This document shows, in pieces, positions 5,035 through 22,902 of a stretch of 64,000 bases of DNA. Within the stretch, counting starts at the first letter, position 1; every line of letters starts with the position of its first letter. Source of the stretch: a virus (lineage: Duplodnaviria; Caudoviricetes). Location: IMG/VR virus record IMGVR_UViG_3300013713_000001, positions 165,110 to 229,109 of that record, one strand, 5' to 3'. Under the pieces are notes generated by a model. It was not told the origin of the DNA. It saw only the letters and a program-made list of their open reading frames with translations, and did not search any database. A program made the position numbers and the translations under genes.

Positions 5035-7050
5035 TTATCCAACACCTAGACTAAAGAAACTTTCCAACGGGCTACCTTGACGGTTGACCATACGGAAGGT
5101 TTTCATCTTGTTCAGCACGTTCTGCTGTCGCTCGTAGATCATCAGGTGACCAATACCACGGCCCACTACGCACTCCTCAAAGCTCGAGAAGTACTTGGGT
5201 ACATCGCCGGGTGGAATGGAAGCGTCGATACCGCCTGGAGTTGCTGTCAAACAGCAGTACAACATGACCTCCGGGTGCACGATGTTGATCCCCTTGATCT
5301 CTTGCGCGATAAGTGACCAGTACTCGGTCAGTACCTCGCCAAAGACCTTTGGTGTAACCACCTGATTTTTCCACGTGGAGTTACGCTTGCTAAAGGTGAT
5401 GAAACTCTCTACACGAGCACGGTGAGCATCCAAGTCTTCGCGGATGAACGGAAGGCTAAACACAGGCTCCAGTACATTCCAGTGACTCAGGTCGATCTTG
5501 ATATGCTTCTTCCCAAGGGTATCCCAGCCGTGTTCCAACACATACCGGAGGAATTCCAAAGAGAACCGTGCTTTACGAGAGGAGATCGATGTATGGGCAG
5601 CGTGTTGCTGGATCGTTTTACCGCCCATCATGATATCTTCAACCGCATAACGGAAGGTCACTTCAGCAAAGTAAGGCAGCTTCTCCAGACTCACGGCGCT
5701 CAGATCACCCAAGGAACGGATGTCCGATAGGACGTTAACAATGTCTGCTCCCAAGACCATGTCACAACCAGGTTCGATGACCTCGGGATTCAAGAAGATC
5801 TCATCGCCATTACTGGAGATGATATTCGTGTCCCGCTTGTGCGGAACGAACTGCCGTGTGATCGCATTCCTGATGAAGTGTTTAGTGGAGAGCATCCCCT
5901 GACCCATTGGGTTACAGATAGAGGTAGCCGACCACATACCCACGTTAGCAATCTTGTCCATCATCTGGTTAAACGGGATCGACGTTGCCATCATCCCGTA
6001 ACATGTTCCACAAGGAACCCCGCTATCACGAGAGTTACAGAACGCAATCGAACGAACGTAGACCGTTTCCCCTACCTTGATATCCCAGACATTCTCGTTG
6101 TCAATGAGCTCGAGGTTACCTGCTGGCATCTCACGCCATTTACCTCTGAGGCCCATGGCCACGTTCATGTTGGCGATCTTGATAGGAACACAGATCCTTG
6201 TTCCACAATCCCAACCGAATTGCATGCCACGCACAACTGCGGTCAAGATATGGGTCTTGCGGTGGAATAACTCTGAATCCTTCAACGCTTTACCGTTGTT
6301 GGTCAGGGCTTTACCCGAGGCGTTTTTCTCACCCAGGGAGTCCGCCAGGTTGGTGATGCCGTGTGCATAAGGTACCGACACAGCGTTAGGGTGAATCGTG
6401 TTGTTCAAGCTAAACACGCCACCCCGCATCACAGACAACTGATACGCCTGGTTGACACTCACGCCACCGGTCCTGGCAAGCATCGCCATGACGTTATGGT
6501 CAAGACTCTCGGCCGACTTGATGTGGGCGTTAAACTTCTCTTCGCCTTCATCAATCGAGATCTTCTTGTTGAGGATCTCGTCACGGATCTCCATGACCCC
6601 TTCATCCGCCATGAGGTCACCGACGGATTCAGCCGAGGCCGACAACGAGGAACCTTCGCCCATTACTACAGACTGGTTATGTAACTTATTTTGCCAGATG
6701 TGAATCAGACGCTTGATGTCATCGATCTCCTTGAGGTTCCTAATCCCAGGGAGCAGCTTCGCCAGCATGTAGTTGATAGGGATCGCCTGGACGTCATCGT
6801 CGTAGGTAATCATCTTGCCTTTGTTGGCTTCTACCTTATTCGACGGGATCAGCTCCTTGACCGAATAAGGGATGTGGTCATAGTGACGGTGAATGATCAA
6901 CCCCAACCAGGTCAACATCAGGACGTAGGTGTCAGAATCAACACTTACGCCCTCATCGTCGGTCACCGTTACCGGGCAGCGGTAGCCTCGCCAACGCAGC
7001 ATCACTTCTTCAGGCAGATTGGCCCATTCGCGAAGACTGACCTGCATCAT
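5035..7050 (-). CDS. Non-virion RNA polymerase beta'-like subunit, C-terminal part (phiKZ gp74-like)
   Basis: DCGT, RSIAFC...PCGTCYG zinc site, trigger-loop-like GQGMLSTKH. ATGA-coupled to the beta-C gene. Confidence 0.88.
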   Translation of the reverse strand: MMQVSLREWANLPEEVMLRWRGYRCPVTVTDDEGVSVDSDTYVLMLTWLGLIIHRHYDHIPYSVKELIPSNKVEANKGKMITYDDDVQAIPINYMLAKLLPGIRNLKEIDDIKRLIHIWQNKLHNQSVVMGEGSSLSASAESVGDLMADEGVMEIRDEILNKKISIDEGEEKFNAHIKSAESLDHNVMAMLARTGGVSVNQAYQLSVMRGGVFSLNNTIHPNAVSVPYAHGITNLADSLGEKNASGKALTNNGKALKDSELFHRKTHILTAVVRGMQFGWDCGTRICVPIKIANMNVAMGLRGKWREMPAGNLELIDNENVWDIKVGETVYVRSIAFCNSRDSGVPCGTCYGMMATSIPFNQMMDKIANVGMWSATSICNPMGQGMLSTKHFIRNAITRQFVPHKRDTNIISSNGDEIFLNPEVIEPGCDMVLGADIVNVLSDIRSLGDLSAVSLEKLPYFAEVTFRYAVEDIMMGGKTIQQHAAHTSISSRKARFSLEFLRYVLEHGWDTLGKKHIKIDLSHWNVLEPVFSLPFIREDLDAHRARVESFITFSKRNSTWKNQVVTPKVFGEVLTEYWSLIAQEIKGINIVHPEVMLYCCLTATPGGIDASIPPGDVPKYFSSFEECVVGRGIGHLMIYERQQNVLNKMKTFRMVNRQGSPLESFFSLGVG

Positions 7051-9302
7051 GAAGGAGTGTCCTCAGGTTGATTCTTTTTAAGTTCGGCTTCCTTGGCACT
7101 CAGCTCAGACAGGAGACCACCCAATCGGCTCTCATTGTAGCCTTGGAGATGTTCGTAGCTGACACGGTCACTCGGTCGTTCATGCCGCAACGATAGCCCC
7201 GAGTCTTTCATCATGCTGACGGACATGTTCAATGCGCGGTTATTCACATATTCCTCCGGCTTAATAATCTGAGGGATATTCAATGGGTCGTTAGCCCTTA
7301 CCCAGCGTCGAACTGCACTGATGCGGTTCTCAGGCGAATACGCAAGCGACAACAGTTTCACCACCTCTTGACCACCCGACTGACTGGTTACCCAGCGACC
7401 CTCGGTCTCGGCGGTGTTCTTGTTGTTCTTGTCGTTCATCGGCAACCCATAACGGTCCGAGTCACTCATCTTCGCCGCCATACCAAAGAGGTTAGACTTT
7501 GGCATGCACTGCGCACTCATGTCGCTACCGAACTTATCCAAGAGGATGAGGTCCTGCACGCTGATCATGATGGGGTTGGCTGTCTCTTGCAGTTCACCCA
7601 AGGAGTTGACCCAGGTTGCTTTCTGGGGCTGGTACTTGTAACGCTCGCGTAGCTTGTTAATAAGGTTGACGCCAAACAACTTCGAGTTACTGAGAACGTG
7701 GATGGAAATGTTCTTCTTGCTGACGTTGTCAATGTACTCGATCATGTCCTCTTCTTCCTCAGTCGCCAATTTAAACATCTCGGCGAACTCAGGGAAGCCC
7801 TGATCAAAGTACTCCATCAACTTCCGGTGTGCCGTGCGATAGTCGCCTTGCTTGCGCAGGTGCTGCACTTCACGGTGGATGTGCATGGTCAGGAAGTTGA
7901 TACTCAACTCCAGCAACAATGCGTAGATCTGACGACGGAAGGCCGGAATGTTGTTAAGGATCACCTCGGCAGTTGTTCCATCCGCATAACGCGGTGCGTG
8001 GCTATCCGGAATGATCTGAATGACCACACCCTTGTCACCGTTCAACCCTGACAGTTTCCACTTGACCCGACCGGTCATGCGCTGCTTGAGTTCAATGGTG
8101 ACGTTCCAGTCCTTGTACTTCTCCCGCTTGATCGAACGATACAGTGGGTTGGTGCGACCGGAGCGATTGGTGTAGTTACCGTAGGCTTCACGGATAAAGG
8201 TGTTGAGCTTGTGGGTCATGGCAATCTTGCCGTCACGACTCAAGCGAACCTTACCTTCGTACCACTGCAGGACCGCGTTCCACATCTCGTTACGCCGACG
8301 CTCGTAACGGTCCAGCATCTGGTTGTGACGCTGGGGGATGTAGGTGGTGTTGCGGTTGTTGGCTTTGTTCTTGCTCCGATCCGAGTCCACATGAACCGCT
8401 TTAACTTCACAGTCCCGTGGCGCATAGAGCAAGTGATCGTAGGTGGGGTCAGGTTCACGCAAGGCCTTCTTGGTAAGACTGACCAGTGCGTTCTCCTTGA
8501 TCCGTTTCCGGAAGCCCATCACGATACCGTCTGAACGAATCGGTTCACCTGGTGCTGGGAAGGGGGATGGGTTCTCATCGGTGCCGTACAGCATCAATGG
8601 AATGTACTCGTCTTCGTTCCAGTTGAAGGCGCGGGTGTGTTTAAACATGCACGCACATCGCTCAGCAAACGACTCGGTGATAACGATGCCGTCCTCTTCC
8701 GTCCGGTGGTCGGAATAAGCGGCTACCCGTGTCGGCATGGAGAAGCGCCAGATGCCGTCTTCGTCGATCCGTGGGCTCTGGGCAAAGATAGTGCCTTTCG
8801 GCAACCAAGCGCCTTGCTTAAGCTTGCGCAGGACGTCTTTGTCATAGACGTACTCCCAGCCCACGCTTGTGTTCTGGGTGTGGTAGGTGGGAAGTTCGAG
8901 AAGGTCGTACGCGTTCTTCTCATCGTTCTTGTAAATGATGTAGGTCGGTTGCCAATCGTCGCTGTTCTTTTCCGAATCCAAGCTCTGGATGTAGAAGAGT
9001 TCCTCAACGATCATGTTGCTGGGAGCGACCACCTTGCGTGATGTCTTGCCGTACTTCCGTTCGTTACCACTCATGAGCCAACGAACATCCGCACCTTCGG
9101 TCGGTACAGACTTGGGAATCATGTTACCGGCCATGTACATACGACCAGCCGAGCTGCACATGGGGAAAACAATCAAGTTACTACTAACACCAATCAGCGC
9201 TGGGTGCAGTTGGTTCTCACCGCATTCGTACTTGTAACGAACACCATCTGCAATACCCGTTAAGTTAAATTCGAACTCATTCATTAAAGACCTCTTAGAC
9301 AT
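7047..9302 (-). CDS. Non-virion RNA polymerase beta-like subunit, C-terminal part (phiKZ gp71-73-like, uninterrupted)
   Basis: SSAGRMYM, TEEDGIVI and KLSGLNGDKGVV (beta GDK...GxKG motif); synteny with gp74-like gene. Confidence 0.88.
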   Translation of the reverse strand: MSKRSLMNEFEFNLTGIADGVRYKYECGENQLHPALIGVSSNLIVFPMCSSAGRMYMAGNMIPKSVPTEGADVRWLMSGNERKYGKTSRKVVAPSNMIVEELFYIQSLDSEKNSDDWQPTYIIYKNDEKNAYDLLELPTYHTQNTSVGWEYVYDKDVLRKLKQGAWLPKGTIFAQSPRIDEDGIWRFSMPTRVAAYSDHRTEEDGIVITESFAERCACMFKHTRAFNWNEDEYIPLMLYGTDENPSPFPAPGEPIRSDGIVMGFRKRIKENALVSLTKKALREPDPTYDHLLYAPRDCEVKAVHVDSDRSKNKANNRNTTYIPQRHNQMLDRYERRRNEMWNAVLQWYEGKVRLSRDGKIAMTHKLNTFIREAYGNYTNRSGRTNPLYRSIKREKYKDWNVTIELKQRMTGRVKWKLSGLNGDKGVVIQIIPDSHAPRYADGTTAEVILNNIPAFRRQIYALLLELSINFLTMHIHREVQHLRKQGDYRTAHRKLMEYFDQGFPEFAEMFKLATEEEEDMIEYIDNVSKKNISIHVLSNSKLFGVNLINKLRERYKYQPQKATWVNSLGELQETANPIMISVQDLILLDKFGSDMSAQCMPKSNLFGMAAKMSDSDRYGLPMNDKNNKNTAETEGRWVTSQSGGQEVVKLLSLAYSPENRISAVRRWVRANDPLNIPQIIKPEEYVNNRALNMSVSMMKDSGLSLRHERPSDRVSYEHLQGYNESRLGGLLSELSAKEAELKKNQPEDTPS

Positions 9303-9696: not shown

Positions 9697-9720
9697 AAAT
9701 AGTGGGAAAGGACAAAAAAT

Positions 9721-9753
9721 AATAACCAGCAGGGTCGCCCCCTGCTGGTTATT
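9721..9753. terminator. Hairpin between convergent genes
   Basis: AATAACCAGCAGGG-tcgcc-CCCTGCTGGTTATT, 14-bp stem. Confidence 0.75.
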
Positions 9754-9764
9754 AATGCTACCTG

Positions 9765-11285
9765 TTAACCCCAGGAAGGGCTGTTACCAAAACCGCTGTT
9801 GCCACCGTTGTCCAAGTTCGTCACGCTTGGGGTCCCGGTTGGCATGACCGGAGTTGGCATCATCTGCTGGAGCTGGGACGGATGGATGATCTGGCCGTTA
9901 GGCAGCTGGATCAGTCCGTTAGGCAGCTGGATCGGCTGACCGCCCATGCCCATCATCCCGTTCATGCCACCCATGCCGGCCATGTTCCCCATGCCGCCAA
10001 AGCCCATGTTCATGCCACCGTACATGGCTGCACCGGCGTTCGGGTTAGGGGTTTGACGTTCGAGGAACGAACCCTGGCGAGTACAGATGTACATGACCGG
10101 CAGGTTCGTGAGGGTATCGATCCCGTAGTGAGTGACGCGGCCCTGGTGGAAGTTGCACTCGTAACGGGTCAGGCGGTCCGTATGGAGTACTTGTGGTGGT
10201 GGGGTGATAACAAAGCCGGTGTTCGGATCGATGTTCTGACCCGACGGCTGAGTCGACGACCCCGGTGCGGCGTGCGACGGCGCCTGATGGACGTTGCTGC
10301 TCACCGACATCAACCCAGCGAAGTCCTGACGACCAGCCGCCTGGTGGATCGTTTCGTCGTGGGTGTTGTGGGTGTTGTAGTCCATCTTTGGAACCTGCTT
10401 GTACCACTCGGGCAGGTTTTCCAGATCTTCGGTCCAGTTCAGGTTGACCGGGTAGATGCCCGCTTTCGCGAACTCGCTCCGGAAGGTGCTCTGGATCTTG
10501 TTGATCTGCTCGGCCACGTCGGCGTAGCAGTTGAGGTACGAGATCAGACGTGCAGCGATCGGACTGTTCGCTTCATGCACATGGTCGTCAGGTGACAGCA
10601 CGGCTGGGACGATGTACTGGAACAGGTGGATAGCCAACTTGACCGCGGCGCGGGAGACGCTGTGGTTGTTGATCTCGATCTGCTGGTTGTCGGTCTTGCC
10701 TTCGGTACGGGCGATACGGCGAACCAGTTCGTTATAGAACGGGAACTCCGGCTTCGTCGTGTAGTAGACCTTGTCGCCCGAGGTCTTCGACAGCTTGCCG
10801 CTGGACTTGTTCGTCTTGAAGTGCACGAAGCGGTTGTCCAGGCCGTTCTCTTCGACTTCCACATGCAGCCGACCGAAGAGGTCTTGGACTTCGCGAATGA
10901 CCGGACCCTTGGCGCCCTTGAGGGGTTCCAGTAGATCCAGAACGCGCTGGCTCCAGGAGTTCTTTGGCTTGTTGCCGGCGACTGGAAAGAGGACCGGTGG
11001 GATCGAACGGAAGGCGTTCAGCAGGCGCAGGGAGGTTACCTTGCGGACCACTTTGAACACTTCGGTTTCTTTCGAGGTGATGTCTTCGCACGCAGGGTGG
11101 AAGAAGACCTTGCCGACTGCCACTTCGTCGAGCACGTCAGTCGTTGGCAGGTAGAGGTTCATCCCGTCGATGGTGATCGGGTATTCTTTCCCGTCGAGGT
11201 CCAGCAGGATCTTGCCGTCCGTCTTGACGACCGTGTTCCAGGACATGAGCATGTCCTTGTACAGCTTGTTCAGTTCATTCATCAC
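9765..11285 (-). CDS. Conserved-block protein downstream of PicA-like gene (phiKZ gp70 position) with G/M/Q/P low-complexity C-terminal tail
   Basis: 506-aa ORF with strong codon bias. C-terminal ~90 aa include GGMNMGFGGMGNMAGMGGMNGMMGMGG and two IQLPNG copies; ends GFGNSPSWG. Confidence 0.8.
   Translation of the reverse strand: MMNELNKLYKDMLMSWNTVVKTDGKILLDLDGKEYPITIDGMNLYLPTTDVLDEVAVGKVFFHPACEDITSKETEVFKVVRKVTSLRLLNAFRSIPPVLFPVAGNKPKNSWSQRVLDLLEPLKGAKGPVIREVQDLFGRLHVEVEENGLDNRFVHFKTNKSSGKLSKTSGDKVYYTTKPEFPFYNELVRRIARTEGKTDNQQIEINNHSVSRAAVKLAIHLFQYIVPAVLSPDDHVHEANSPIAARLISYLNCYADVAEQINKIQSTFRSEFAKAGIYPVNLNWTEDLENLPEWYKQVPKMDYNTHNTHDETIHQAAGRQDFAGLMSVSSNVHQAPSHAAPGSSTQPSGQNIDPNTGFVITPPPQVLHTDRLTRYECNFHQGRVTHYGIDTLTNLPVMYICTRQGSFLERQTPNPNAGAAMYGGMNMGFGGMGNMAGMGGMNGMMGMGGQPIQLPNGLIQLPNGQIIHPSQLQQMMPTPVMPTGTPSVTNLDNGGNSGFGNSPSWG
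9895..9933. repeat. Tandem 18-nt direct repeat, period 21, encoding IQLPNG twice
   Basis: CCGTTAGGCAGCTGGATC at 9895-9912 and 9916-9933. Confidence 0.9.
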
Positions 11286-11293
11286 TGATCACC

Positions 11294-12742
11294 TTAGAAG
11301 TATTCTTTGATGTTACTCAGGTAGTTCTTCGATTCCGACAGACCGATTTCAGTCCCGGAGATCAGAGAACTCGAGTGGTTGATGTAGTAGGTGGCGTTGC
11401 TAAAGGTTTTGCTGTTGTTGTAATCCGTGCCGAACGAGATCGTGACACGGGTTTCACCAAACATGTGGCATTCCATATGCAGGTTGATAAGGGTACGCAG
11501 GTGAGCGTAGGGACCGGTGTACTTGGCGAAGAATGCATCGGTGAACTGGCGGTTAAAGGTTTCTACCCGCCCGTGCAGGTTGAGGTCGTTGTCCAGCACC
11601 GACATGGACTGTGCCGGAGAGAACGCTACACCACCACCGCCTTCATCGCCGCTGACGCCGTCGAAGTCAGTAGGGTTGTTGGTGCAGCTGAAGTTGTACG
11701 ACATCAAGCCGCAGGAGAGCAGCAGGTGGACACACATCATCGCTGCTTCGGAGGCAATGATCTCGTGCTGGTTAACACGGCCATAGTCCTGGGTCAGCAG
11801 CTGGGTATCGTCAGCCGCAAACTTGCTGACATCCATGTTGTCCAGGTTCAGGACGTCGATGAAGTTTGGCCAGACTTCCACCATCTCGTCAACCGACCAC
11901 CCACGGAATGTGCCAAGGCTATGAACGCTCAGTACACTCATCATTGTCTGCATGAAGGGGTTGTCGTGAGGAGAGATCTCGTTAAGGGTGGCGGTGGTCA
12001 TGTACTCACCAATCGCCCACGCCAGATTGCCATCGTTCCCAGAGGCATGATCAGCGGTTGTTACAGCCAACTTCAGCAGCTCTTTCGAGTAGTGCGTTGG
12101 GTTCAGGTTCTGGGTCTTCGACATGAGCAACTGATTGGTCAAGTCGGAGTTCGCCACCCCACAATAGTTTTGTGAAGTCCCGTCACCGTCAGTTACCGCG
12201 TAACCCAGTGCAGCACTCGCTACGTCATAAGGACGCACTGCGGCCATGTCCTTCTTACCGAAGGGGTCACCCAGGAGGAACTGATGGGTACTGTCAACGA
12301 CTTGCTTGGTCGTTGGGTAACCCTGGCCGTCATGCGACTGCGTCGTGAGCGTGCTCCAGCAGCGTACCGGTTGCAATCGCGTGGCACCGTCAAGGCCGTT
12401 CTCAGCGTTGCTATTACCGCCCACGAGGAAGCACACCACCGACATGTCTGAGCTCTCAGTGGCGTTCGAGTGGACCTGGAACTTCAGCAGGCAGATCCCT
12501 CGGCGCATGTTCATCCCTTCTTCGACGGAGACGAACCCTTGAGGCTGAGCGCAGAGCTGACCGGAACCCATGGCAACGTCGTGCAGGGTCTTCGGAAGGA
12601 TCCCGCCGGATTCTTGCTCATGACGGAGTCGGTCGATCTCCAGGTTGTCCAGGCTCAGTGTGGTGTGGCGGTGAACGTGGTGGTGCTGACTCGTGCCAAT
12701 ACCAAAGAAAGCCTGTTGCAGTACAGTTGTGATCTCAGCCAT
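11294..12742 (-). CDS. picA: Phage nuclear import factor PicA/Imp1 (phiKZ gp69-like)
   Basis: 482-aa ORF immediately downstream of the gp68-like gene and upstream of gp70/gp71-like genes. Call rests on synteny and size, not a diagnostic motif. Confidence 0.65.
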   Translation of the reverse strand: MAEITTVLQQAFFGIGTSQHHHVHRHTTLSLDNLEIDRLRHEQESGGILPKTLHDVAMGSGQLCAQPQGFVSVEEGMNMRRGICLLKFQVHSNATESSDMSVVCFLVGGNSNAENGLDGATRLQPVRCWSTLTTQSHDGQGYPTTKQVVDSTHQFLLGDPFGKKDMAAVRPYDVASAALGYAVTDGDGTSQNYCGVANSDLTNQLLMSKTQNLNPTHYSKELLKLAVTTADHASGNDGNLAWAIGEYMTTATLNEISPHDNPFMQTMMSVLSVHSLGTFRGWSVDEMVEVWPNFIDVLNLDNMDVSKFAADDTQLLTQDYGRVNQHEIIASEAAMMCVHLLLSCGLMSYNFSCTNNPTDFDGVSGDEGGGGVAFSPAQSMSVLDNDLNLHGRVETFNRQFTDAFFAKYTGPYAHLRTLINLHMECHMFGETRVTISFGTDYNNSKTFSNATYYINHSSSLISGTEIGLSESKNYLSNIKEYF

Positions 12743-12772: not shown

Positions 12773-14332
12773 TTATTCGCTGATTTGCCTAACCAAGCGC
12801 ATAAACTCGTCACGTATTTTGGGTTCAATCTCAAGTTCAAACAAGGCACCACGTTCTACACGATCGTAGATCTCACGCTCGTTCAGAACACCGTATTCCA
12901 GGTTGGACTTCCACTGACCCGCTGCCAAACCTTCGAGGAAATCAGTAGCGTCTTCAATAGCCTCGTTAAAGGAACGACCTTCATCGTTTCTACTTTGGAC
13001 GTCACAGATGCTTTCCAGGTAATCTTTGTCAACCGAGGTCAACTTCAAAACATCCGCAATCGAGCGCATGCCATTAGGGTCGTGAATTGCACCCACCAGC
13101 GAAGGGAGGTATTCGTAACCCCATTCCGCCAACCGAACCTGTGCCAATGCAATAGCTGCCATCAGCTGAGTATAATTGGCTGCCCAGTAAATCATGATTG
13201 AGATGTCACCCTTAAAGACCATTTGCAGGAGCTTAAGGTTGTGGGGTGCCAGCTCGAATTCCCAGTTAGGGGGAATGTTATCAAAGATCTTTTCAACCAG
13301 TTCAGGCTGCTTGATACCAAGTGCCATGCAAGGAACCGTGAATCGATCAGTGTGTCGCTCCCGATCCATTTCATCCATCAGTCCCATCGAGAAGAACTCA
13401 GCTTCAACTTCTTCGTCAGTGGACTTAACCGCTTCCTTTGCCTGGTAACGTTCGTACAGCGAGCGCTTCTCTTCCTCGCCTTCGTAACCATCGTCCTTCT
13501 TGCGCCACTTGCTGCCGCTGGACTCGTGTTGGCGTACCGCCGCGTTGATCGCAGTGGCGAGGTTCTTGCCTTCCTCCGTTTCCGGAATGATGGCACAGCA
13601 GAGACGACTGAAGACCATGTTGTACAACACATGTTCTACAAAGTACTCCATGCTGCCCACGCCGTCTACTTTAAGCGGCTCACCACGCTTCTTAAAGGAG
13701 AAGTCCACGTAAAGCAGCAGCTTGCGCCAGCCGTCGGTATTGACAATGTGCGGATTGTTCTTGATCAGGTCCCCACAGACGAACTCTGCAAAGTTCATGC
13801 TCATGAACCCGGCGTAGCGGTAGGTCAGAGAGAAGATGATCGGGTAGATGGTTCGGATCAGCAAGGTCATCTTCACAATGCTGACGTAGTGGTCTTCGGT
13901 AATGGTGGTCTGCTCAGGGTAATACCCTTTGCTCGCCGCCTGGTTCAGTTCAGGTGGGATCACCAGGTGCCGGGAGTTATGGATAAAGTCCATGAACCGA
14001 GCCGGCTGGATATAGTCAAGGATTGCATCAGTGATCGGTTTGACCTCTGGCAACTCTTTCTTATAATCCCGGTAGGTGGGGTTCTCGCAGATACGGTGTG
14101 CACGCTCGTACAGCTTGAACAACTCCAAACGTTCCTCGGAGGTGTAGTACCGCTCAACGTAGTCGTTGAACGCATCGAACAATTTGCCCTCTTGCGCTTT
14201 GATATTGCCCTTGTTTGACTTCTCCAGCTTGATGGAGTTGTCGCCAGTGAACCGTAGGGAGTGATCGTTGAGGGCTACAACGATAGCCTTCATCCCTTTC
14301 ATGGATTTTCGAATAACTTCAATCGTTAACAT
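12773..14332 (-). CDS. Non-virion RNA polymerase promoter-specificity subunit (phiKZ gp68-like)
   Basis: About 520 aa, in the gp68 position of the core block. Start placed at ATG 14332 from GGAG RBS spacing (ORF track starts at 14338). Early promoter upstream. Confidence 0.75.
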   Translation of the reverse strand: MLTIEVIRKSMKGMKAIVVALNDHSLRFTGDNSIKLEKSNKGNIKAQEGKLFDAFNDYVERYYTSEERLELFKLYERAHRICENPTYRDYKKELPEVKPITDAILDYIQPARFMDFIHNSRHLVIPPELNQAASKGYYPEQTTITEDHYVSIVKMTLLIRTIYPIIFSLTYRYAGFMSMNFAEFVCGDLIKNNPHIVNTDGWRKLLLYVDFSFKKRGEPLKVDGVGSMEYFVEHVLYNMVFSRLCCAIIPETEEGKNLATAINAAVRQHESSGSKWRKKDDGYEGEEEKRSLYERYQAKEAVKSTDEEVEAEFFSMGLMDEMDRERHTDRFTVPCMALGIKQPELVEKIFDNIPPNWEFELAPHNLKLLQMVFKGDISIMIYWAANYTQLMAAIALAQVRLAEWGYEYLPSLVGAIHDPNGMRSIADVLKLTSVDKDYLESICDVQSRNDEGRSFNEAIEDATDFLEGLAAGQWKSNLEYGVLNEREIYDRVERGALFELEIEPKIRDEFMRLVRQISE

Positions 14333-14360
14333 CAGCAACTCCAGGGATTACCTAACACAC

Positions 14361-14445: not shown

Positions 14446-15135
14446 TTAGAAGTCAGCGTCGTCGTCGTACGAGGAGTCGAAGTCGCTGTTGCTGTTGTTG
14501 CTACGGCCCGGAGACTTCTGAGCGAAAGCGCCTTCTTTCGGAGCAGGCGGCTCGTACATGTCGCGCTCCATGGTGTTCACCGGCTCTTGGTGCCACTTGA
14601 CCCAGGCGCGAGCGGCCCAGCGGGACAGGGTACCGTGGTCTTCGACCTTTTGACCTTCGGCGTTCTTCATGTACAGCACGGTGTCGTTTGCGCCGCGGAA
14701 GACGATCTTCGCCGAGTACTCGCCCTTGCGGTAGGTCACGCTGATCACGCCGTCTTTCGAACGGTCGATGGTGAACATCGCTTTGACGATCGGGTTGTCG
14801 GAGATCTTGCTCTGACCGCCGGACTTGATGAAGTCCTTTTTGCGGATGACCATCTGGCGGCTTTCGAAGCCAGCGTCCATGCACGCTTCGAGGATGCCTT
14901 CCATCAGTGCGTTACGGTCGGACCAGTTCATCTCGACTTCACGATGGTTCGACTTCGAGTTCGGGTCGTAGATGCCATCGTTGATTTTCATCACGATCTT
15001 GCCGTTCGACTTCTGCTGGATGATCCAGGTCGCCGGGTACTTCCCGCCTTGGACCGGATCAATGGTCGAGGCTTGTGGTTGTTTCCAGTCATCGAAAATG
15101 GTCTTGCGGCGGGCGTTGCTGTTCGGCTGGGACAT
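14446..15135 (-). CDS. Core protein (phiKZ gp67 position) with SSB-like acidic C-terminal tail
   Basis: 229 aa, strong codon bias, beta-rich body, flexible linker, ends DFDSSYDDDADF. Confidence 0.7.
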   Translation of the reverse strand: MSQPNSNARRKTIFDDWKQPQASTIDPVQGGKYPATWIIQQKSNGKIVMKINDGIYDPNSKSNHREVEMNWSDRNALMEGILEACMDAGFESRQMVIRKKDFIKSGGQSKISDNPIVKAMFTIDRSKDGVISVTYRKGEYSAKIVFRGANDTVLYMKNAEGQKVEDHGTLSRWAARAWVKWHQEPVNTMERDMYEPPAPKEGAFAQKSPGRSNNSNSDFDSSYDDDADF

Positions 15136-20741: not shown

Positions 20742-20775
20742 AAAGCTAACTCCTGAAATTTAAAAAGAAGAATAG

Positions 20776-20803
20776 GGGTTAGGGGACCGAAGCCCCCTAA
20801 CCC
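20776..20803 (-). terminator. Chimallin terminator
   Basis: Minus strand GGGTTAGGGGGC-UUCG-GTCCCCTAACCC followed by a U-rich tract. Confidence 0.8.
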
Positions 20804-20825
20804 ACTAATCAATTACTGCTACCGC

Positions 20826-22811
20826 TTAGCCCCAGATGCCGCCGTTGCCGAAGCCACCCAGCAGGTTCATGCCATTGGAGGTGCCCACCGAGGTAACGGT
20901 TTGCAGACCAGCCATCGGCATGAATGCCATGTTGTTCGGACGCATCGACGCGTAGGTGTTGGCCACGGTCAGAGTACCCATCTCCGACAGTGCCTTGCCG
21001 ATGACGGCCATCAGGTGCGGATCCCAGACGCAGGAGAAGCCGAAGTTGTTGACGTGCAGATGACCATCGAACAGACTGGTGCTCATCTCGATCTTCAGCT
21101 TCTGGCAGCGCGAACGCACTTCCTCGTTGGTGGTGCCGTAGAGGATGCTCAGGTAGTTCATGGACTGCTGGAGACCAGCCTTGCCCTTGTGCGTACCCAG
21201 GTACATCTCGTCGACTTCCAGGGTGTTCAGCTCGCGACCTTGTGGGTTCTTCGCGAGACCGTTCACCGCGATCATCTTCGTGCGGTGCAGCGCGACGTCG
21301 CCTGGTTTCCAGCCCTTGCCGCTGGCCACGTTCTCGGCAACGATCTCCGAGAAACGGCCGTTGGACATGGAGTCCATTACCGCGATCATGGCTTGTACCG
21401 CCGACTGACGGTTGGCCAGAACAGGATCCGACAGAACTTCCAGGTGTTTGTTCACCGGGGAGTCGAGGCCGCCGAGGATCACGTTGCTGCGGAACAGAGC
21501 ATTCGGCGAGATGTTCTGGTGCATCCACTTGTTGACGGCTTCGGTGTCCAGGATGGTCTTGTCGTCCATCTGAGGACGGGCACCGGAGTAGACCTGGGCG
21601 ATCAGCTGCTCGATGCGAGGTTCGAACGCGCTCAGGTTACCACGCGAACCGACGTTGGCACGACGCAGGGGTTCTGCGAAGATGTAGTCGGTGTTGGTGC
21701 ACATCAGAGCGAACAGCGAGTAGTAGTACGGGTGCAGGCCGTTGTTGAAGTTCATCATCTCTTCGGCGATTGCCGAGTCGAGGGTGATGACCGGATGCAG
21801 CGGACGGTAGCCGTTCGCGTACATGCCGCCGTTGATACCCAGGAAGGCCTGGATGGCATCGGCTTGACCGCCGGCTTGCGAGATGGCTGCGATGTTCTGC
21901 ATGTGCATCTGGTAGCTGATGGCCGACAGTTGCACGGTCGCCAGCGCCCGCACGATCCCTTTCGAGTTCGGGTTGTTGTTGTTGCCGTTGTTGTTGTTCG
22001 GGTTGTTGGTGGTCGAGATCACCAGTTCCATGTTCGACGCCATGAGGGTGCCGGCCTTGGAGACCTTGTTCTCGACAGCGGTAACCCGAGCTTCGGCCCA
22101 GCCGTCTTTGCCGTACGGCGCGCTTGGATCCTTGAACGCGGAAGGCAGACGAGCTTTGCGCTTCGGCATCTCGGAGCAGATCTTGACGAACACCGCAGTT
22201 TCCCACTGCCCTTTCAGGTAGTTGGCGATGCGCTGCGGACGCTCTTTCAGATCGCCGGCCTGGGAGTGTTGCAGCATTTCCAGGTCTTCGGTCATCAGGT
22301 TGATGATTTCCGGCTCGCCCTTCATGCCGTTCTGCTCGAGCAGCTGCTTGAAGTGCTTGCGCAGGTTGTCGACCAGCTCGTTGGTGAAGTAGTTGGTCGG
22401 GGTCAGCAGGACCGAGGTCTTGTGCGGCATGCCCATCGGTTGCAGGACCTGGACGGTCTCGGTGGCGATGGCGTTGTCCTTGTTCGAGAACAGGACGAGC
22501 ATGACCCAGACGCTGTCACCGACGAAACGGTGCAGAACCAGGCCGGGCAGGGTGGAGCTGATGACCGGCGAAACTTTGTCGACGGTTGGGATGATCGCGC
22601 GCTGGGCCGGCTGGATGGTCGACTCGCCCATGGCGGTATAGCCCTTCTTGAGCAGCTCCAGGACTTCGTCGACTTCGGGGAGCTGACGGTTGTCGGAGGA
22701 CATCGAAGGGGTGTGGAAGAGGTCGTTGAGCAGGTTCAGTTCCAGAGCGTGCCCATCGTTGTTGTCCCAACCACCAGCGTTGTTGCCTTTGCGGTTACTT
22801 TGAACGGCCAT
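20826..22811 (-). CDS. chmA: Chimallin, major phage nuclear shell protein (phiKZ gp54-like)
   Basis: About 660 aa with extreme high-expression codon bias, own early promoter and terminator, and the diagnostic position directly upstream of nvRNAP beta'-N. Gly-rich extended C-terminus. Start at ATG 22811 by GGAG RBS spacing. Confidence 0.85.
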   Translation of the reverse strand: MAVQSNRKGNNAGGWDNNDGHALELNLLNDLFHTPSMSSDNRQLPEVDEVLELLKKGYTAMGESTIQPAQRAIIPTVDKVSPVISSTLPGLVLHRFVGDSVWVMLVLFSNKDNAIATETVQVLQPMGMPHKTSVLLTPTNYFTNELVDNLRKHFKQLLEQNGMKGEPEIINLMTEDLEMLQHSQAGDLKERPQRIANYLKGQWETAVFVKICSEMPKRKARLPSAFKDPSAPYGKDGWAEARVTAVENKVSKAGTLMASNMELVISTTNNPNNNNGNNNNPNSKGIVRALATVQLSAISYQMHMQNIAAISQAGGQADAIQAFLGINGGMYANGYRPLHPVITLDSAIAEEMMNFNNGLHPYYYSLFALMCTNTDYIFAEPLRRANVGSRGNLSAFEPRIEQLIAQVYSGARPQMDDKTILDTEAVNKWMHQNISPNALFRSNVILGGLDSPVNKHLEVLSDPVLANRQSAVQAMIAVMDSMSNGRFSEIVAENVASGKGWKPGDVALHRTKMIAVNGLAKNPQGRELNTLEVDEMYLGTHKGKAGLQQSMNYLSILYGTTNEEVRSRCQKLKIEMSTSLFDGHLHVNNFGFSCVWDPHLMAVIGKALSEMGTLTVANTYASMRPNNMAFMPMAGLQTVTSVGTSNGMNLLGGFGNGGIWG

Positions 22812-22902
22812 AATGTAGAACTCCATCTTTTCTTAAGAAAGGTTATTTCGCTAGCGGAATCGCCAAGTGTATGCCTACACACATTTCTATCCACGATTCA
22901 GA

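Follow-up and report, generated by a model that had tools for sequence, protein, structure and literature searches.

A chimallin-like C-terminal tip on the gp70/gp64-family protein of a chimallivirus and its graded likeness in related phages

A question in phage-nucleus biology is what keeps accessory proteins, among them import factors, mRNA handlers and capsid-docking factors, in the closed lattice of chimallin (ChmA), the major protein of the nuclear shell. Six proteins of phage PhiPA3 are found at the shell; five have no predicted function, and for most of the six there is no established mechanism of docking. The question is raised in a specific form by a 64,000-nucleotide stretch of a Caudoviricetes genome (hereafter the window), which comprises bases 165110-229109 of the 229,109-bp IMG/VR record IMGVR_UViG_3300013713_000001. 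The gene at 9765-11285 of the window encodes a protein, P0001, of the family of PhiKZ gp70 and PhiPA3 gp64, and this protein ends in nearly the same residues as the chimallin of the same genome, P0002. Could this shared tip be what holds P0001 at the shell? We tentatively favour this answer, at somewhat less than even confidence, and set out below the evidence on both sides.

The shared C-terminal tip in the window genome

The genes and segments in question are the following.

9765-11285, minus strand: gp70/gp64-family gene P0001, 506 codons from a GTG at 11285; the probable start is the ATG at 11282, which gives 505 aa
9765-9797, minus strand: last ten codons and stop of P0001, SGFGNSPSWG-stop by translation, the CTS2-like tip
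20826-22826, minus strand: chimallin (ChmA), P0002, 666 aa, major nuclear shell protein (phrog_4795 'nuclear shell protein', E 2.4e-96)
20826-20858, minus strand: the ChmA decapeptide GGFGNGGIWG and stop, by translation, mapped to the C-terminal segment CTS2 (residues 622-631) of 201phi2-1

Translation bears out what the initial annotation, made from the sequence alone, had noticed at the ends of a 506-aa protein and of chimallin. Over GFGNxxxWG the two proteins are identical at six of nine residues (seven of ten over the last ten), at the same distance from the stop codon. The further remark that the codons differ also holds. The 33-nt gene ends are identical at 21 of 33 bases, and synonymous codons differ at five of the six shared residues, with Asn encoded by AAC in both and Trp having a single codon; a recent duplication is therefore not the source of the likeness. 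Searched by megablast, the DNA of the locus had no near relative in the phage collection.

Within the whole genome the pair stands alone. Among 1305 stop-to-stop open reading frames (ORFs) of at least 60 aa, none other ends in GFGNxxxWG or carries GFGN in its last 30 residues, so that the proteome scan proposed in the initial annotation returned these two termini only. The P0001 tail was the best non-self match to the ChmA tail among 430 ORFs (anchored BLOSUM62 score 37, against 19 for the next; z = 6.0), and in tail composition P0001 came top in a set of about 210 non-overlapping genes. When the last 60 residues of P0001 and ChmA were aligned locally, the alignment extended over about 30 columns and scored above 300 composition-preserving shuffles (z = 3.4, p about 0.007), indicating that the likeness in this pair exceeds shared composition.

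The runner-up match to the chimallin tail (score 19) was a 170-aa virion structural protein (phrog_14066, E 1.1e-39) encoded outside the window, at C1:144897-145409 of the genome on the minus strand (L112:1398-1910). It ends in F-G-G-G-S-Y-Y-G-stop and resembles the CTS2 consensus of the sister clade described below.

In the 631-residue chimallin of 201phi2-1, CTS2 comprises residues 622-631 and reaches a third protomer around the lattice corner (Laughlin 2022, PMC9365700). Its deletion abolishes chimallin self-assembly in vitro, and it is seen in a defined site in the maps of both 201phi2-1 and Goslar (PMC9365700). Alignment of P0002 with 201phi2-1 gp105 placed the end of the ChmA core at about residue 622, CTS1 at about 631-653 and CTS2 at 657-666; residues 622-631 of the 201phi2-1 protein fell on exactly the decapeptide shared with P0001. 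The CTS1 motif is kept across 23 ChmA homologs. A profile of the ChmA homologs (A2) matched the PhiPA3 shell protein in PDB entry 8fne (E 0.0038), and a PDB sequence search with P0002 alone found nothing.

The domain PF25677 is recorded on all 27 ChmA homologs among the matches listed. A PF25677 search of five IMG/VR records (those behind loci L034, L036, L037, L039 and L040) gave no match, even in complete Vibrio-type phages, and the Vibrio-type chimalliviruses missed by the model do encode a chimallin by tblastn. PF25677 appears too narrow for the whole chimallin family; in these genomes ChmA was located by tblastn coordinates instead.

The gp70/gp64-family protein and its disordered tail

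P0001 matches phrog_3520 over nearly its full length (residues 2-457, E 1.1e-91), and the same family is matched by PhiKZ gp70 (E 4.1e-122) and PhiPA3 gp64 (E 1.8e-133). Direct BLASTP against PhiKZ gp70 aligned residues 27-304 with 4-260 (E 5e-11), and 140 homologs of P0001 were retrieved. The 505-aa version of the protein, whose ATG lies one codon inside the GTG, agrees with the database cluster P0005. P0001 is this phage's ortholog of PhiKZ gp70 and PhiPA3 gp64, a core chimallivirus protein. PhiPA3 gp64 sits at the nuclear shell by microscopy and appears in ChmB pull-downs (Enustun et al., PMC10643120), and Kokontis et al. (bioRxiv 10.1101/2024.03.27.586873) include PhiKZ gp70 in their list of nuclear proteins.

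An AlphaFold2 model of P0001 (m8af1213cacd4, from a 60-sequence alignment) contains an N-terminal domain at residues 1-300, with a predicted local distance difference test (pLDDT) score mostly above 90, followed by a disordered linker, a small four-stranded beta domain at 356-415, and disorder to the C-terminus. About 90 residues of the tail are disordered and rich in Gly, Met, Asn, Gln and Pro. The features of the tail and of the gene end are as follows.

9768-9863, minus strand: predicted disordered C-terminal tail of P0001, residues 475-506 (pLDDT below 50, AlphaFold2)
9888-9933, minus strand: 21-nt tandem repeat, 2.2 copies with 92% match, which duplicates the LPNG motif of the tail (Tandem Repeats Finder)
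9720-9754, minus strand: terminator-like hairpin with a T-run directly after the P0001 stop (hairpin scan)

As after the gp70-like gene, a strong hairpin terminator also follows the chmA stop, at about 20775-20810, where it was seen by eye.

The tail has the layout proposed for a docking tail, in which a short tip stands at the extreme C-terminus behind a disordered linker. Its motifs across the closer homologs are LPNGQ-hydrophobic-x-P, V-Y-x-D and the terminal tip, and LPNGQ is nearly invariant. Two other readings of the tail were dropped. It is not an FG-repeat (nucleoporin-like) barrier protein: P0001 holds only two GFG motifs, and its Gly/Met/Asn/Gln/Pro-rich tail is not of the FG-repeat kind. 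Additional mimicry of CTS1 (LPNGQ-V-x-P compared with RPN-x-x-V-F-x-P) was given up, as the profile-profile alignment described below pairs the last ten columns only.

Searches with the model gave no assignment for the folded part. Foldseek found no match in the PDB at E <= 0.001, and the VIA wide fold search reached a best Z of 5.7, mostly through the small beta domain, with chimallin not among the matches. BFVD returned uncharacterised family members only, and a PDB sequence search with the gp70-family profile A1 found nothing. Among the structures searched, the N-terminal domain has no known fold, and no oligonucleotide/oligosaccharide-binding (OB) fold was found.

The two tails across related phages and how their likeness may be read

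Pairs of gp70-family protein and ChmA were taken from 28 IMG/VR contigs and 18 isolate genomes (46 pairs). The strict motif GF[GS]N-x3-WG is present in both proteins of four paired genomes of the window clade and of a fifth, contig 68551 (P0007 with P0128; 75% gp70 identity). In the sister clade, gp70 ends in G-G-L-N-D-x-Q-x-W-G and ChmA in A-F-G-G-G-x-x-F-G, both with position -8 hydrophobic, position -2 aromatic and a final Gly (-1). Relative to the sister-clade pairs, the window branch acquired Trp at -2 and Asn at -6 in ChmA, and in gp70 it acquired Phe at -8, Gly at -7 and Asn at -6. Judged from the aligned termini, both tails on the window-clade branch have moved towards each other.

This pattern bears on one way of explaining the likeness without any function, namely that an ancestor of the window clade long ago copied a short piece of the 3' end of chmA into its gp70-like gene by micro gene conversion, with synonymous sites blurred since. 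The roughly 30 aligned residues of likeness in the window, and its restriction to one clade, are what such a transfer would leave. Against it stand the synonymous differences and the DNA identity of 21/33 given above. The motif is also kept in five of five clade members at 75-87% protein identity, which implies purifying selection, and the sister clade already has the -8/-2/-1 register, a stepwise pattern. We regard a block transfer as very improbable.

Over the family the likeness is graded. It is strong not only in the window clade but also in RSL2 and PCH45, OBP-like phages and Goslar show it to a moderate degree, and there is none in the PhiKZ clade and the Vibrio phages. The register in which position -8 is hydrophobic, -2 aromatic and -1 small is found in 19 of 120 gp70 homologs, 17 of which belong to the 50 closest, and in 19 of 27 ChmA homologs. 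One clade (IMG/VR contig 3300028676_000005) has F-x-N-P-x-Y-stop at the end of both proteins, and in OBP-like phages both end in Tyr; the terminal Gly varies in one clade only. In RSL2, PCH45 and Moabite, both tails switch jointly to an Arg/Asp/Tyr-rich sequence. Of the 13 RSL2 genes from gp70 to ChmA, only these two carry such a tail; their tails are the top two of 491 ORFs of that genome for Arg/Asp/Tyr content, and the gp70 tail is the most ChmA-like of 457 ORFs. The initial annotation had proposed comparing the C-termini across chimalliviruses. The comparison gave a mixed answer, as same-genome likeness does extend beyond this phage and the strict motif does not leave the window clade, with no echo in the PhiKZ-like and Vibrio clades.

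Third for Arg/Asp/Tyr content in RSL2, behind gp70 and ChmA, is a 207-aa ORF (AP014693.1, 140864-141487, minus strand) with a Tyr/Arg/Pro-rich C-terminal tail. It may be another shell-associated protein.

When the last ten residues were scored in anchored register, pairs from the same genome had a mean of 0.62, compared to -5.78 for cross-genome pairs (permutation p about 5e-5, 32 dereplicated genomes, uncorrected for phylogeny). Profile-profile alignment of the gp70 and ChmA tails paired the last ten columns alone, in register, with a weak score (E 0.024). The final or the penultimate residue is aromatic in 116 of 120 gp70 homologs and 26 of 27 chimallins, compared to 36 of 210 genes (17%) of this genome, and across the families aligned here this terminal anchor is the most robust shared feature of the two tails. 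The ChmC and Imp1 families tend to aromatic ends too, and the anchor alone is therefore not specific to the gp70-ChmA pair.

The reading that we tentatively prefer, while giving it somewhat less than an even chance, is that the tail of P0001 docks on chimallin by mimicry of CTS2 and so holds the protein at the shell; the likeness of the tails would then reflect use of the same binding site. The disordered tail would act as a flexible tether, and its tip would occupy the CTS2 receptor site on a ChmA protomer. Free CTS2 sites could be offered at lattice edges, at vacancies, or where an accessory complex replaces ChmA subunits, and the tether would fix the N-terminal domain of P0001 to the shell. 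Docking of this kind agrees with the presence of the PhiPA3 ortholog at the shell and with the part that CTS2 plays in the lattice structure. Much the same proposal was made in the initial annotation, and it is upheld in part: the motif lies at CTS2, the ortholog gp64 is at the shell and the likeness holds within the same genome, whereas the exact match is limited to the window clade. A complex prediction for the ChmA core (50-625) with the gp70 tail (465-506) scored 0.01 without controls, and speaks neither for nor against binding.

Several observations weigh against CTS2 docking. The strict match is confined to five genomes with gp70 identity of at least 75% (75-87%). In the clade of PhiKZ, 201phi2-1 and PhiPA3, gp70 ends in aliphatic pairs and ChmA in aromatic pairs, with no echo between them, and in Vibrio phages the two tails are unlike; whole-genome tail ranks in both groups are unremarkable on at least one measure. 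The docking reading leaves these clades unexplained, unless in them the pocket accepts any hydrophobic C-terminus. Against the ChmA tail gp70 ranks low in USC-1 (58 and 154 of 203) and, on the anchored score, in Moabite and PhiKZ also. Similarity in residue order beyond composition is significant in the window only and marginal in three others (mean z 0.28), and disordered tails will share some composition for trivial reasons. The permutation test ignores phylogeny, and the charged-tail phages form one unresolved clade, so that their joint switch counts as one or two events. The gp70 tail motifs LPNGQ and VY-x-D have no ChmA counterpart.

Part of this evidence is what would be expected if the likeness were coincidental or convergent, each disordered tail with its hydrophobic anchor serving a partner of its own and the identity in the window having arisen by chance in Gly/Asn-rich sequence. 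The missing echo in several major clades, a mean order-specific z near zero, the gp70 tail's own family motifs, and the aromatic ends of ChmC and Imp1 all point in this direction. Chance does not readily account for the top rank of gp70 in both the window genome (about 210 genes) and RSL2 (457 ORFs), for the own- versus cross-genome difference (p about 5e-5), or for both tails having moved towards each other on the window branch. We consider convergence without shared function doubtful, although it has to be taken seriously.

A further possibility is that the tails avoid the CTS2 pocket altogether, and either share a third partner or cohere like-with-like as low-complexity segments, which are aromatic/Gly-rich in most clades and have an Arg/Asp/Tyr pattern in the others. 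The tails would then stay matched in chemistry even where the motif itself is not identical. Covariation that lies mainly in composition and the terminal anchor, rather than in residue order, would follow naturally, and the joint switch to charged tails would be easier through a shared chemical environment than through one rigid pocket. There is also a precedent in the neighbouring shell protein ChmC, which forms condensates through its disordered tail (bioRxiv 10.1101/2023.09.22.559000). The match in the window clade is, however, position-specific and anchored at the C-terminus, which is what a defined site would produce; there is no known third partner, and both the 201phi2-1 and the Goslar map resolve CTS2 at a definite position. 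We judge this explanation unlikely. More speculatively still, and with little expectation that it is right, the tails of ChmA and the gp70 family, perhaps with those of other aromatic-ended shell proteins, might form a cohesive low-complexity layer of the shell with its chemistry matched in each phage (aromatic/Gly-rich or Arg/Asp/Tyr-patterned), which would aid selective passage or the recruitment of accessory complexes, like the permeability barrier of a nuclear pore made in a protein shell.

Gene neighbourhood, known systems and significance

The gp70-like gene lies in a block with the following neighbours.

7047-9302, minus strand: beta subunit of the non-virion RNA polymerase (nvRNAP), gp71-73-like, downstream neighbour of the gp70-like gene (phrog_3295, E 6.5e-218)
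11294-12742, minus strand: Imp1/PicA-family gene P0003, immediately upstream of the gp70-like gene (phrog_3141, E 7.1e-64)
12773-14338, minus strand: gp68-position protein, an nvRNAP subunit in PhiKZ (phrog_3209, E 2.9e-114; position conserved)
14446-15135, minus strand: ChmC/Imp6-family protein with an acidic tip ending in Phe (phrog_3284, E 5.3e-46; PhiKZ gp67 is in the same PHROG)

The gene order is ChmA, nvRNAP gp55-like, SbcD-like, gp66-, gp67-, gp68-, gp69- and gp70-like, and nvRNAP beta. This order recurs in every one of the isolates compared, and the place of the gp70-like gene between Imp1/PicA and nvRNAP beta is the same in the window and in 18 isolate genomes. PhiKZ gp69 also matches phrog_3141 (E 2.7e-179). 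Direct BLASTP was not significant for P0003 against PhiKZ gp69, nor for the ChmC-like protein against PhiKZ gp67, and the Imp1-like and ChmC-like identities are assigned because of shared PHROG families and synteny. The nearest named phage is Pseudomonas phage EL, with 52% identity in gp70 and 48% in ChmA.

Beside chmA, an HNH endonuclease follows the gp55-like gene in PhiKZ (L099, gp56), Goslar (L101 14270-14646) and PS1 (L105 4998-5789). In Goslar a group I intron is annotated at this HNH insertion; the window phage is without the insertion.

The initial annotation had also proposed P0001 as a candidate missing component of the nuclear import site, and this claim found no support. The gp70-like gene does adjoin Imp1 and Imp6, of the Imp1-Imp6/PicA set of PhiKZ, in a conserved block. 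The Imp factors differ from it in that PhiKZ gp70 was not recovered in import selections and was not co-purified with Imp1, whereas gp67/Imp6 was (bioRxiv 10.1101/2024.03.27.586873). As it is based on adjacency to Imp1 only, and has the published negative pull-down against it, a role at the import site is speculation.

The closest known counterparts of P0001 are PhiPA3 gp64, PhiKZ gp70 and 201phi2-1 gp126, which belong to the same phrog_3520, occupy the same place between Imp1/PicA and nvRNAP beta, and likewise have a folded N-terminal domain followed by a disordered low-complexity tail with a hydrophobic end. Their tails end in aliphatic pairs, unlike the CTS2 of their own chimallins, while the tail of P0001 nearly copies the CTS2 of its own. 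Like the P0001 tip, CTS2 of 201phi2-1 gp105 and Goslar is a segment of about ten residues at the extreme C-terminus, after a flexible linker and with an aromatic end. CTS2 links protomers of one kind within the lattice protein; the tip of P0001 stands on a non-homologous protein for which no fold similarity to chimallin was found.

Bacterial single-stranded DNA-binding protein (SSB) consists of a folded domain, a disordered Gly/Gln/Pro-rich linker and a C-terminal tip whose last residue is Phe and which docks in partner proteins. The architecture of P0001 is similar: behind its folded domain and low-complexity linker stands a short, conserved, aromatic-ended tip, which would serve as the docking peptide. 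It differs from SSB in that the gp70 tip is not acidic and the N-terminal domain shows no OB fold, and the SSB-like acidic tip is instead carried by the ChmC/Imp6-family neighbour.

In that neighbour's family (phrog_3284) a Gly/Asn-rich linker is followed by an acidic tip with a terminal aromatic, D-D-D-A-D-F in the window and D-E-D-I-P-F, D-N-D-I-P-W or F-D-D-I-D-F in other phages. The loci elsewhere are:

L111:5552-6316, ChmC/Imp6 acidic tip
L108:15455-16258, ChmC/Imp6 acidic tip
L110:16208-16993, ChmC/Imp6 acidic tip
L098:9186-9974, ChmC/Imp6 acidic tip
L094:6046-6762, ChmC/Imp6 acidic tip

This tip is very much like the one by which bacterial SSB docks at its C-terminus. The accessible portion of the ChmC study calls the tail region an electronegative cluster and makes no comparison with SSB (bioRxiv 10.1101/2023.09.22.559000). 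The Imp1/PicA-family protein of the window ends in K-E-Y-F-stop, and in several phages the Imp1 homolog likewise has an aromatic residue at its end or close to it. From these termini, a terminal aromatic may be common to shell-associated proteins.

A literature search found no mention of the likeness between gp70-family and chimallin tails. The comparison made here suggests that a CTS2-like tip on a protein other than chimallin is new, whereas the shell-associated family and the principle of tail docking were already known. If CTS2 docking is true, a copy of CTS2 on a non-chimallin protein would constitute a simple and testable rule for insertion into the lattice, and would provide a peptide-sized handle for perturbing that insertion by deletion, swap or competition. 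The joint Arg/Asp/Tyr switch of both tails in RSL2-like phages would then represent a natural specificity swap.

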